Below are positions 17,496-45,605 of a DNA stretch of 54,204 nucleotides, in pieces. Position 1 is the stretch's first letter, and each line of letters starts with the position of its first letter. The position numbers and the translations under genes are program-made. Source of the stretch: Nanobdellati archaeon (GTDB lineage: Archaea > B1Sed10-29 > JAGVWA01); the NCBI GenBank assembly GCA_018304505.1, contig JAGVWA010000014.1:1-54204 (forward strand), written 5' to 3'. The notes under the pieces were generated by a model. It was not told where the DNA came from, made no database searches, and saw only the letters and a program-made list of their open reading frames with translations.

Positions 17496-17498
17496 TAA

Positions 17499-17738
17499 GA
17501 GGGGCTTCGCCCCTTCTATCCCTGAAGCACTGCATTCGGCTTCGCCGAAGCAGAGCGGTTCTTTGGTTTTGAAAAACAGGGGTTTTCAAATTTGATAAAC
17601 GCGTAGCGTTCTGTCAAATGCAGCTTTCTTTTTAAGAAAGGTGCAAGCACCACCCTCAGCGTCAAAGGGCTTCGCCTACAACAAAACATGATTTTGTTGA
17701 GGCCTCAAAGAACTACGTTCTTTGCAGACCCTCTTGAC
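17499..17738 (+). repeat. Modular palindromic (REP/MITE-like) repeat cluster, copy A
   Basis: Stacked hairpins; shares TTTGAAAAAC..GTTTTCAAATTTGAyAAACGCGTAGCGTTCTGTCAA and CCCCTTCTATCCCTGAAGCACTG with copy B. Confidence 0.85.
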
Positions 17739-17839
17739 ACCTGCGGCGCATCAAGCATAGCTTGATGCACCTGTTTTTGGTGCGTCGAGGTGCCACAGTA
17801 AGGCTTGGCGCCATGGTTTTCTTTTCAACAACGCGTTTG

Positions 17840-18481
17840 TTAGATGTATTGCGCGAAGGCTATTGAACTTATTATTGAAACCAGAACAATGCCGAGCAGG
17901 TATGCAGCGATTGATCGCAGTGTTGTGATTTTGTGGGCCTGGCGTAAGCCGATGATGAACAATGCAATGCCCCAAACCTCAGCCAGCAGCACGAGCAGCA
18001 GTATTGGGGCTGTTACTGGATTTGCGAGAACTCCCGTTATCAGTTGCTCACTCGTCATATCCCCAAGGCCCTGGCTTATGAATACTTGTATGGGTTCAGG
18101 TGTTGTGTAGAAACCGATGTGCGAAAGCGCTGTGCTGATGGTGTCCGGGACAATTGCAAACCCGGCCATGGTAACGAATTGCTTTAGTGTCGCCGTGCCT
18201 TTTAGGGCAACCGCCATGTAGTGCATGACCAGGATTGTCAGTATGAGCATGGACAGCCCGAACACGGCGAGGGTGCCCCATGGGATTCCTGGGGCCGCAG
18301 CAAGTGGATTTACAACCGATGCAATAAAAGAAATTCCGAGAATTGCGATGCTTACTGGCAGGTATCTATCAGTGTTCTTTGCCGCGCGGTCGAAAAAACG
18401 CGATGGGGCGAACACAAGGTCCAGCAACTTGTAATCCTCATCGGTCTTGTGTTTTGCAGTTTTTGTTTTTCTCTGGGCCAT
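17840..18481 (-). CDS. Yip1-family membrane protein
   Basis: VFAPSRFF motif and five TM helices. Confidence 0.8.
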   Translation of the reverse strand: MAQRKTKTAKHKTDEDYKLLDLVFAPSRFFDRAAKNTDRYLPVSIAILGISFIASVVNPLAAAPGIPWGTLAVFGLSMLILTILVMHYMAVALKGTATLKQFVTMAGFAIVPDTISTALSHIGFYTTPEPIQVFISQGLGDMTSEQLITGVLANPVTAPILLLVLLAEVWGIALFIIGLRQAHKITTLRSIAAYLLGIVLVSIISSIAFAQYI

Positions 18482-20118: not shown

Positions 20119-20235
20119 GCCTCAGTGGCTTAGACTGCATAGGGGCAAGCTCTTTGCTTGTCATCCTGGCGGGAGAAGTGGTATAGCGCCTGTCTCGTAA
20201 ACAGGAGGTCGTGGGTTCAACTCCCACCTGAGGCT
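20119..20235 (+). tRNA. tRNA-Thr(CGT) with 45-nt D-loop intron (20134-20178, position 15/16)
   Basis: Acceptor GCCTCAG/CTGAGGC; anticodon arm CCTGT-CTCGTAA-ACAGG; removing the insert gives D-arm GCTTAGTGGTATAGC; relaxed BHB. Confidence 0.9.
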
Positions 20236-20237
20236 TA

Positions 20238-20377
20238 GGGGGGCTTCGCTTGCAAGGAAACGAAGTTTCGTTGAAGATTTGAAAAACAGGGTTTTTCAAA
20301 TTTGACAAACGCGTAGCGTTCTGTCAAGTCTCAAGGAACTCAATTCCGTGCAGACCCCTTCTATCCCTGAAGCACTG
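20238..20377 (+). repeat. Modular palindromic repeat cluster, copy B
   Basis: Same modules as 17499-17738 in a different nesting order. Confidence 0.85.
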
Positions 20378-39178: not shown

Positions 39179-39961
39179 TTAAGTGTTCATAATTTTAGAT
39201 TGTCTTAGTATTTTCTTAGGGTCCAGGGCCATTATTTCTTTCCAAGTTACATTGGGGCTTCTTTTCATGAACTCCTTTATTATTTGGTATCCAATTGAGT
39301 AGCCTGTCCACAAGGGATATTCACTGCTTCCAAAGAACACCTGCTGGAATAGCTTGTGACTTTTGGAGTTCAATTTGCTTTTTAATTTCTTTAGCTGCGC
39401 CTTGCTTTCATTTCTTGATAATGCGCTGGCCCACGGCGCGGTCTTTCCGCCAACAACGTTCTCGCGGTAGTGTTCTGCCATGCCCTCATAGATGATTGCA
39501 TCTAGAATAGAGTTGTTGGCTATTGGGTATTTTGTTATTGAATGACAATACTCATGTGCTATCGTTTCCCGTAGGCTGGTTTTCCACCCCGCTGTTCCGG
39601 TGATGAATATGTTTATTGTGTTGGTTCATGGGCAGTATCCGTTAACCCCATTCATTTTGTTTTTCACAAATTCAGAAAAGCAGGGGAACACGTTAACGTA
39701 TGTTACTGTGTGTGGTTTGCTGGTGACGTTTTCGCTTTGGCATTTTTTTATGGTATGGATAACGATTTTTTTTATTTCTGTTTGGTCTAATGGGATGGGC
39801 TTTACTTTTCCGTCCGGGTCAATCTTTTCTTCTAAATGCATCTTAAGCGCTTTTTTGGTTTTCCAGCCAGCATACCCGTTACCCGATTTTTGTACTTTTT
39901 TGAGGATCTCTTCCAGCGCGCGTTTGCCCTGTGACCGCGTGTCGATTATTTGTATTTTCAT
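39179..39961 (-). pseudogene. DUF2268-like Zn-dependent peptidase with in-frame TGA at 39626-39628
   Basis: Reads GVNGYCP*TNTINIFI...TIAHEYCH...IIYEGMAEH...PLWTGYSIGY in one frame. Confidence 0.82.
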
Positions 39962-40142
39962 TTTTGGTGCGCCCCTGAAGGTGCAGGGAGAAATTCAGAA
40001 CGCCCAAATTTGCATATGGGCGTTTGCTGCCCCGTTGCGTAGCAACGGTGCGGATCTGCTTTTCTACAGCAAATTTGCTGAGAAATCGAAAAAGCTTTGC
40101 TTTTTCGTATTTTCCCCAAGCTTTTGCCAGTGGGCAAAAGGC

Positions 40143-40422
40143 TGGTGCAGGGAGAGGGAGTTTCCCAAGGAAGCCCATCTGCCCCTAAAAACCATGGCAC
40201 TTCGCCGCAAGGCGAAGGTGGCATTTCAGGACTTGACAGAACGCTTGCGCGTTTGTCAAGCCCGAAAAAACCCTAGTGGGTTTTTTCAGGGGTCAAGGGG
40301 ATGAAATCCCTTGTTTTGAACCCTCGTAGGCACTGAGCCAATGGATGTCGCATGCGCGGCGAGCCCATTTCTGGGTTCGCCTGATCTTGAGTCCATCCCG
40401 TTTTCCGCTCCGGCATCCCTGC
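40143..40422 (-). tRNA. tRNA-Leu(CAA) with two introns: 39 nt at 37/38 (40347-40385) and 155 nt at 59/60 (40160-40314); CCA encoded
   Basis: Acceptor GCAGGGA/TCCCTGC-A-CCA; ATGGA-CTCAAG|A-TCCAT; long variable arm; GAGGG-TTCAAA|T-CCCTC; BHB-like junctions at both introns. Confidence 0.87.
40232..40290 (-). repeat. Palindromic repeat modules (copy C) inside the tRNA-Leu T-loop intron
   Basis: Minus strand TGAAAAAACCC..GGGTTTTTTC + TTGACAAACGCGCAAGCGTTCTGTCAAG matches copies A and B. Confidence 0.8.
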
Positions 40423-40530
40423 GTTACTCAGATTGTGCTTTTGTGCCTATAAATACGTTTACATCCAGTTAGGGCAAAGCGTAAGTTTAATAAGCAGTAA
40501 ATATGCAAATATTTAGTGTAGGGGATAATA

Positions 40531-45467: not shown

Positions 45468-45577
45468 GGTCGCCATAGCGTAGCTTGGTAGCGTTAGAGA
45501 CTGTGGATCTCTAGGGCCGGGTTCAAATCTGCAATGAGTTTCAATGAACTCCTGCGGTGAAAGTCCCGGTGGCGGCC
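45468..45577 (+). tRNA. tRNA-His(GTG) with encoded G-1 and 36-nt T-loop intron (45528-45563, position 59/60)
   Basis: G-GTCGCCA/TGGCGGC-C; AGAGA-CTGTGGA-TCTCT; strict BHB TTCA/TGAA with AAT and AGT bulges. Confidence 0.92.
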
Positions 45578-45605
45578 CTATCTTTGTTTTTTTCTCGCTA
45601 GTTTA

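Follow-up and report, generated by a model that had tools for sequence, protein, structure and literature searches.

Many introns have been described at odd positions of archaeal tRNA genes, yet the way in which they arrive is still debated. Positions 40143 to 40422 of the window, by which we mean the whole 54,204-nt stretch of DNA analysed here, raise this question. In the raw sequence of this region, no gene was detected by ARAGORN or Rfam, and searching all 917 kb of the genome for tRNAs with Rfam likewise gave none here. An earlier note, made from the letters alone, had nevertheless read the region as a tRNA-Leu(CAA) gene that becomes recognisable only after removal of 39 nt at position 37/38 and 155 nt at position 59/60. 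Is this a working gene, and where does its long intron come from? The hairpin modules in the long intron are those trailing many other tRNA genes, and the locus may show how such introns arise. The host is archaeal and probably DPANN-like, with a genome of 0.92 Mb in 21 contigs (92.8% complete, ~47% G+C). None of the other genomes in the set of 41 searched shares its genus or family, and its nearest relatives in the collection, with genomes of 0.4–1.3 Mb, are related at the order level only.

When both introns were taken out by a script, ARAGORN recognised a complete 86-nt class-II tRNA-Leu(CAA) with seven of seven acceptor pairs, anticodon and T stems of 5 bp, the T-loop TTCAAAT and a long variable arm. 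With intron 1 alone taken out, ARAGORN reported no tRNA, while removing intron 2 alone yielded a tRNA with a 39-nt canonical intron. The cloverleaf therefore needs both excisions, and the earlier description of the interrupted gene was right throughout, including its strand-neutral coordinates. The gene lies on the minus strand and consists of the following parts.

40448..40453, minus strand: TTTATA, a TATA-box-like hexamer ending 26 nt 5' of tRNA position 1
40143..40422, minus strand: tRNA-Leu(CAA) gene, 280 nt including the CCA after the discriminator; gives an ARAGORN cloverleaf once spliced by script
40386..40422, minus strand: exon 1, tRNA positions 1–37
40347..40385, minus strand: intron 1, 39 nt at 37/38, relaxed motif
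40315..40346, minus strand: exon 2, positions 38 to 59 (3' strand of the anticodon stem, variable arm, 5' strand of the T stem, T-loop TTCAAA)
40160..40314, minus strand: intron 2, 155 nt at 59/60, bulge-helix-bulge motif
40143..40159, minus strand: exon 3 (T60, 3' strand of the T stem, 3' strand of the acceptor stem, A73, CCA)

TATA-like motifs of this type act as promoters in archaea, and transcription of tRNA-Leu(CAA) would start about 26 nt downstream of TTTATA. The exons are colinear within 280 nt, unlike those of a split or permuted gene. A tRNA pseudogene would show broken stems or lost identity elements, but the acceptor, T and anticodon stems of the spliced tRNA are all intact, with no mismatch. 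The region is a real leucine tRNA gene, interrupted twice.

In archaea, the splicing endonuclease targets two 3-nt bulges that lie 4 bp apart. Intron 2 is bordered by a near-canonical bulge-helix-bulge motif of this kind with one A·G mismatch, in which the exon helix forms five of five pairs, the central helix three of four and the intron helix six of six. Bases 54–57 of the T-loop stand opposite GGAA near the 3' end of the intron, and the exon-side helix is the T stem itself.

40320–40317 with 40165–40162, minus strand: central helix of intron 2, three pairs and one A·G mismatch
40316–40314 and 40161–40159, minus strand: bulges of intron 2, 3 nt each, AA|A and AC|T
40313–40307 with 40172–40166, minus strand: intron helix of intron 2, CAAGGG/CCTTGG, 6/6 pairs

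The motif of intron 1 is of the relaxed type: the exon helix (5/5) and the central helix (3/4) are present, and the intron-side helix is not formed beside the bulge. A motif score of at least 11/12, as high as that of intron 2, has a frequency of 2.0e-4 in this genome at one given position and length. A genome-wide scan for the motif geometry, followed by automatic splicing and ARAGORN, reduced 90,567 candidates to 31 ARAGORN-positive constructs, among which this blind procedure retrieved the intron 2 site of tRNA-Leu(CAA). The scan copes with one non-canonical plus one canonical intron per gene; genes with two non-canonical introns, namely the Gln genes, Arg(GCG) and Thr(CGT), were parsed by eye. 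A brute-force scan for T-arm and acceptor pairing was set aside as far too permissive.

When the complete precursor is folded, its minimum-energy structure (−126.9 kcal/mol) contains the acceptor, T and anticodon stems together with four stacked intron hairpins, in line with the multi-hairpin stack described before. It had also been pointed out that the CAAGG arm at the 5' end of intron 2 can pair either locally or distally, and a folding-dependent splice had been considered. Both partners of CAAGG(GA), the adjacent CCCCTTG and the distal TTCCTTG, were recovered by computation. In the ensemble, the distal, splice-competent pairing of this arm reaches 0.87 versus 0.11 for the local one, and the distal helix is already present in the unconstrained minimum-energy fold. 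The splice-competent pairing likewise prevails in all four precursors that were folded (0.78–1.0), and a folding-dependent splice thus finds no thermodynamic support. In the folded precursor, the 4-bp helix between the two 3-nt bulges would arise by pairing of the T-loop with the end of intron 2 on its 3' side.

The sense strand of intron 2 contains two T runs, T6 at 40270–40265 and T5 at 40191–40187, which presumably could stop the archaeal polymerase early. In combination with a TTTTTA situated ~26 nt upstream of exon 3, these runs would suit expression in two pieces, whereby transcription stops at T6, a promoter within the intron drives the 17-nt 3' exon and both pieces are joined in trans, as for split tRNA genes. 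We consider this highly improbable, since the intron copy of tRNA-Gln(CTG), although 95% identical, has TTTCTA in place of the TTTTTA, and since the gene is contiguous and colinear, with a full-length fold that gives the splice motif.

One splicing endonuclease gene (EndA, 171 aa; PF01974 with 97.8 bits, plus PF02778) was found. Its product aligns end to end with the 171-aa α4 enzyme of M. jannaschii and has no insertion or extra loop. Among named genomes scanned with this endonuclease, matches came from Methanobacteriales only, at 37–40% identity. RtcB ligase is also encoded in the genome (583.8 bits). In vivo, the single α-type endonuclease would cut both the intron 2 motif and the anticodon-loop intron, and RtcB would join the exons. 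In the available text of two earlier studies (PMC3239211, PMC5829648), the α4-type endonuclease is described as strict and non-canonical introns are tied to endonucleases with extra loops, while α4 enzymes are also present in DPANN lineages with many disrupted tRNAs. A strict-looking α-type enzyme may thus be mismatched with the relaxed motif of intron 1 and the A·G pair of intron 2. The case challenges the view that plain α4-type endonucleases accompany few, canonical introns.

Whether the organism needs this gene bears on a different reading, namely that the gene is dead. A hairpin element in the T-loop would have killed it, the motif would be a leftover or a coincidence, and reading of TTG would fall to tRNA-Leu(TAA) or to a Leu(CAA) gene missing from the assembly. 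No second Leu(CAA) gene was found among 33 ARAGORN calls or 38 Rfam matches in the 92.8% complete genome, which makes this the only one found in the assembly, a point the earlier note had asked to have checked. TTG accounts for 16.7% of the Leu codons, and tRNA-Leu(TAA), which might read TTG, is present. DNA contig pieces with zero mismatches tile the locus in three of four runs (4 studies), one of which may come from the source sample, no intron-less joint for either intron occurs in the four DNA runs, and the exact 21-nt exon 1 pattern has no match in the metagenome contigs. One metagenome locus outside the assembly (L120) carries further tRNA genes, which means that tRNA loci of this organism, or of a very close one, are missing from the assembly. 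Given this locus and the completeness of 92.8%, an unassembled second Leu(CAA) gene may exist. Since standard tRNA finders miss tRNA-Leu(CAA) entirely, codon-table gaps in such genomes should not be taken as tRNA loss.

A BLAST search of the locus against the genome revealed a 95% identical copy over 141 nt on contig 3. This copy is a 155-nt intron at position 59/60 of tRNA-Gln(CTG), with a motif score of 12/12; the tRNA, which also carries a D-arm intron, is the only Gln(CTG) gene found. On contig 14, tRNA-Gln(TTG) has a 148-nt intron at 59/60 (motif 12/12), in which the first 13 and the last 10 nt are as in the family and the interior differs. A tRNA(CAT) in L120 is interrupted by a related 59/60 intron of ~150 nt, which shares 87% identity with that of Gln(TTG) over 153 nt. 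The central helix follows the T-loop of the host: TTCG pairs with CGAA in the Gln genes, and TTCA stands opposite GGAA in the Leu gene. If introns with at least 80% identity in at least two tRNA types of one genome are regarded as a transposed family, the Leu(CAA) and Gln(CTG) introns form one. Judged from these alignments, the family appears to have reached at least four tRNA genes of the organism, with splice-motif ends seemingly tuned to each host tRNA.

Ten Leu(CAA) loci from other genomes of the same order and class were also compared. Four of them have no intron, another four have one anticodon-loop intron (23–62 nt), and two carry a 59/60 intron: 79 nt long next to a D-loop intron in relative G001, and 112 nt long next to a 50-nt intron at 37/38 in relative G020. 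G001 and G020 belong to two other families of the class, and their 59/60 introns start with a similar hairpin followed by a C-rich stretch. The comparison indicates that the site is old or recurrent in the class, with a variable interior.

The reading as a dead gene can be weighed against these data. It is favoured by the T6 and T5 runs within the intron, by the A·G mismatch in the central helix and the relaxed intron 1 motif next to a strict-looking α4 endonuclease, and by an assembly that is 92.8% complete and misses tRNA loci. On the other hand, the acceptor, T and anticodon stems are free of mismatches, a TATA-like box is present, and the motif lies exactly where the T-loop must be restored (2.0e-4 per site). 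Furthermore, the same cargo sits with a perfect motif in the only Gln(CTG) gene found, and 59/60 introns are kept in the Leu(CAA) genes of two other families. A dead gene is therefore improbable in our view. We favour, as the likely explanation, a genuine and probably functional tRNA-Leu(CAA) with two protein-spliced introns, the longer of which is a cargo-bearing member of a transposed intron family.

Position 59/60 is a known intron site, for example in pre-tRNA-Cys(GCA) and tRNA-Pro(GGG) of ARMAN-2 (Fujishima et al. 2011, PMC3239211). As far as the available part of that paper describes them, the ARMAN-2 introns resemble the present one in the T-loop site, the kind of motif, a DPANN-type host and multiple introns per gene. 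In contrast, they are short, the one that was tested measuring 13 nt, and their endonuclease is a three-unit ε2 enzyme with a special loop, whereas the Leu(CAA) intron is 155 nt long with repeat hairpins and the sole endonuclease found is a plain 171-aa α type. According to the accessible text of PMC4033280, archaeal tRNA introns are mostly shorter than 100 nt, and the accessible text of a preprint (10.64898/2026.10.13.758758) gives a median of 22–23 nt for Asgard archaea.

Several neighbouring observations concern the tRNA sets of this group. In tRNA-Leu(TAG) on contig 16 (5251–5369, L027), the gene start is misplaced by ARAGORN, and the start of the D-loop intron resembles that of the D-loop intron in the G001 Leu(CAA) gene. 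At approximately 45470–45590 on the plus strand of the window, a tRNA with anticodon GTG requires removal of a 36-nt T-arm intron (motif 12/12). Rfam tRNA matches at E<=1e-4 number only 11 in G001 and 7 in G020, versus 35 in relative G018 and 41 in the control G033; such low counts suggest very heavily interrupted tRNA sets in G001 and G020.

The interior of intron 2 is occupied by four hairpins.

40294..40313, minus strand: hairpin M1, local alternative to the intron-side helix and conserved first hairpin of the shared core
40264..40287, minus strand: hairpin M2, 10-bp stem, includes the T6 run 40270–40265
40232..40260, minus strand: hairpin M3, homologous to a trailer hairpin of tRNA-Thr(CGT), Arg(TCG) and Ala(CGC)
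40196..40222, minus strand: hairpin M4, second of the two hairpins of the shared core

Alignment defines a core element of two hairpins and a conserved linker. In M1, a compensatory change from T:A to C:G distinguishes the Leu(CAA) intron from the Gln(CTG) copy, and in M4 four of nine predicted pairs show compensatory double changes among seven copies. The core occurs uninterrupted directly 3' of tRNA-Ser(CGA) in the window, of tRNA-Leu(TAG) on contig 16 and of the tRNA-Leu(CAG) that adjoins tRNA(CAT) in L120, where a trailer array follows. In the Leu(CAA) and Gln(CTG) introns, the extra hairpin pair M2–M3 lies between two copies of CCTGAA. In the Gln(TTG) intron, the loop of the first core hairpin contains another pair instead, and most trailers similarly carry other hairpins there. 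Two arrays in the window share these modules.

17497..17850, plus strand: hairpin array behind tRNA-Ser(CGA), with the uninterrupted core and the pair also found in the Gln(TTG) intron
20236..20377, plus strand: hairpin array behind the tRNA at 20119–20235

The pair M2–M3 is colinear with the pairs behind tRNA-Ser(CGA) (17562–17622) and behind the 20119–20235 tRNA and is oriented as they are with respect to transcription; the alignment has 39 invariant columns. By BLAST, intron 2 is also 93% identical over 30 nt to 20302–20330. Both results bear out the claim that two hairpins of the intron match the repeat modules behind tRNA-Ser and tRNA-Thr. As to the tRNA at 20119–20235 (plus strand), ARAGORN calls it Leu(TAA) with an intron, while inspection by eye gives tRNA-Thr(CGT) with a D-loop intron of ~40 nt.

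An Rfam search of intron and trailer matched no known RNA family (best E 0.32), and no C/D or H/ACA features were found in intron 2. The intron of pre-tRNA-Trp, which encodes a box C/D guide RNA, is likewise a long tRNA intron with content beyond the splice motif; in contrast, the cargo in Leu(CAA) consists of simple hairpins with neither C/D nor H/ACA features nor an Rfam match. The interior of intron 2 would be dispensable cargo, a two-hairpin core with later hairpin insertions, which probably does nothing for the tRNA. The intron would be a tolerated place for it, since it would be spliced out.

The distribution of the modules over the genome was then considered. Perfect hairpins with a stem of at least 8 number 105, versus 78 in a mononucleotide shuffle, and 34 of them lie inside tRNA genes or within 400 nt of them, a space of 3.8% of the genome; all but one of these 34 are downstream or inside. 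Since the excess over the shuffle is modest, the signal is the clustering at tRNAs and not the number of hairpins. Seven trailer and intron queries retrieved 21 loci, of which 18 are located inside a called tRNA or at most 162 nt downstream of it, on its strand. The order of the hairpin arrays is conserved at seven loci, and many hairpins end in T runs. The loci away from tRNAs include one site after a protein gene and the P3 loop of RNase P RNA (contig 15, 37817–38093, plus strand, 90.7 bits; L125:418–694). Compared with the Rfam model, this loop has gained 59 nt, and the inserted sequence contains the hairpin pair of the T-loop introns in reverse orientation (86% identity over 57 nt), which fits DNA-level spread into tolerated loops. 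The same RNase P RNA has two further variable regions that are strongly reduced.

In metagenome contigs, the core-element pattern was found at 54 loci, with an extended hairpin required for acceptance. Without that hairpin, 51 of them were set aside as chance matches; of the remaining three, one is the contig studied here and two (L120, L083) overlap a single new locus.

These data also bear on the possibility that the modules are working RNA parts, such as terminator or insulator hairpins, 3'-end protection, a protein-binding scaffold or a circular intron RNA. Their tRNA orientation right after tRNA 3' ends, the array order conserved at seven loci, the compensatory changes that keep the stems and the T runs at the ends of many hairpins would all agree with such a role. 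We nevertheless judge it unlikely. Module content varies freely among introns of one family, terminator-like hairpins within an intron would damage the host gene, and no Rfam family was matched (best E 0.32). One pair is reversed in the P3 loop of RNase P RNA, and a 22-nt hairpin identical in two distant relatives of different families (L006:1697–1718 and L008:1625–1646) stands in opposite orientations relative to their Leu(CAA) genes. We favour dispensable cargo instead, whose modules form orientation-locked arrays after many tRNA genes and would have moved from one tRNA locus to another at the DNA level, through recombination or an unknown insertion process.

The earlier note had gone one step further and suggested a palindromic mobile element that uses a spliced intron as a safe haven. 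The recurring repeat hairpins, their nested layout and the RNase P P3 copy fit the DNA-level spread contained in that idea. As to a target-site duplication, CCTGAA copies border M2–M3, and tRNA 3' end repeats of 11–20 nt border five of 36 trailers. Against the idea, the cargo is a composite of different hairpins instead of one element, its modules are almost solely linked to tRNAs, and no mobilising enzyme was found: the 92.8% complete genome yielded no integrase, Y1 transposase or reverse transcriptase (PF00589, PF01797, PF00078). REP, BIME and REPIN sequences of bacteria and MITEs are small palindromic repeats. Like these, the modules form arrays of short stable hairpins after genes, with compensatory changes and nested insertions. 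Unlike these, they are nearly confined to tRNA genes and oriented with them, with no Y1 transposase found. Copies of MITEs or REPs should be dispersed independently of gene class, but 18 of the 21 module loci are tRNA-linked.

Sequence-related introns across tRNA types have been described in Thermoproteales (Fujishima et al. 2010, as cited in the available parts of PMC4090602, PMC4033280 and preprint 10.64898/2026.10.13.758758). The present case is similar in that a single genome has near-identical introns at the same position in tRNAs of different identities, with 95% identity for the pair Leu(CAA) and Gln(CTG). It differs in the lineage and in a shared modular cargo that also forms 3' trailers and the RNase P insertion; homology between introns and trailers is not described for the Thermoproteales introns in the available parts of these three sources. 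Within the literature collection searched, no title or abstract describes a hairpin-repeat cargo common to tRNA introns and trailers.

The trailer of tRNA-Leu(CAA) itself provides a further link between introns and trailers.

39992..40142, minus strand: 3' trailer hairpin array of tRNA-Leu(CAA)
39980..39991, minus strand: 12-nt direct repeat of the tRNA-Leu(CAA) 3' end (first copy 40144–40155), which closes the trailer array

Homologous arrays trail Leu(TAA), Leu(TAG), Leu(GAG) and Phe(GAA). A further homologue, with 86% identity over 100 nt, makes up the interior of a D-loop intron, the 150-nt intron of tRNA-Arg(GCG). For this Arg gene (contig 3, 124134–124358, minus strand, L030), ARAGORN reports tRNA-Ala(TGC) with a 143-nt intron, while parsing by eye together with motif splicing gives tRNA-Arg(GCG).

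In five of 36 tRNA genes, namely Leu(TAA), Phe(GAA), Leu(TAG), Ala(CGC) and Leu(CAA), the trailer cassette ends with an exact repeat of 11–20 nt of the gene's own 3' part, from the T-loop onward. An antisense copy of the tRNA end, with an exact match of at least 9 nt, was found in the trailers of none of the 36 tRNAs. Elsewhere, relative G018 has one real case among 20 tRNAs plus its Leu(CAA) locus, and a distant control archaeon none in 20. In tRNA-Phe(GAA) (contig 5, 16650–16890, L028), an intact tRNA is followed by a hairpin cassette of ~150 nt and a 16-nt repeat of its own end, and the distal copy offers a 12/12 splice motif for an alternative intron of 164 nt that yields the same tRNA. 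In tRNA-Leu(TAG), the repeats enclose a cassette that is the same core as that of the Gln(TTG) intron, and the distal copy runs on into the kind of trailer that is typical of Leu genes.

That the distal copy in tRNA-Leu(TAG) seems to continue into the ancestral Leu trailer suggests a route, which we put forward tentatively and with some doubt: the T-loop introns and the trailer cassettes might be two states of one hairpin element that seeks tRNA ends. Such an element would enter the T-loop and duplicate the stretch from there to the 3' end, so that an intact tRNA would be followed by the cassette and then by the former 3' end. If the upstream copy were lost afterwards, the cassette would become an obligatory 59/60 intron. 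From its sequence layout, tRNA-Phe(GAA) looks like an intermediate of this route. If true, the route would be a visible path of archaeal tRNA intron gain. The sequence common to 59/60 introns, to tRNA-trailing cassettes with a repeat of their own end and to the RNase P insertion offers concrete intermediates in one small genome. In the available text of a 2026 Asgard census (preprint 10.64898/2026.10.13.758758), copying, mobile elements and reverse transcription were tested and the arrival route of introns was left open.

The system of PMC3293823 (2012), as its available part presents it, is comparable in that an upstream copy leaves the tRNA intact. In contrast, the inserts here are just 100–210 nt long and gene-free, with content common across tRNAs and no integrase found, and each repeat matches its own tRNA.

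Related arrangements were observed around Leu(CAA) in two relatives. In G018 (L002:1590–1890), the segment from the T-loop to the 3' end is present in three copies. In G001 (L006:1590–1790), the 3' exon and ~35 nt of trailer are repeated ~120 nt downstream, after a splice-site-like CGGAAA. Just 3' of the Leu(CAA) trailer in the window, the gene at 39179–39961 (minus strand) looks split: ORF 39961–39626 has no Pfam match, and ORF 39481–39179 matches the C-terminal half only of DUF2268.
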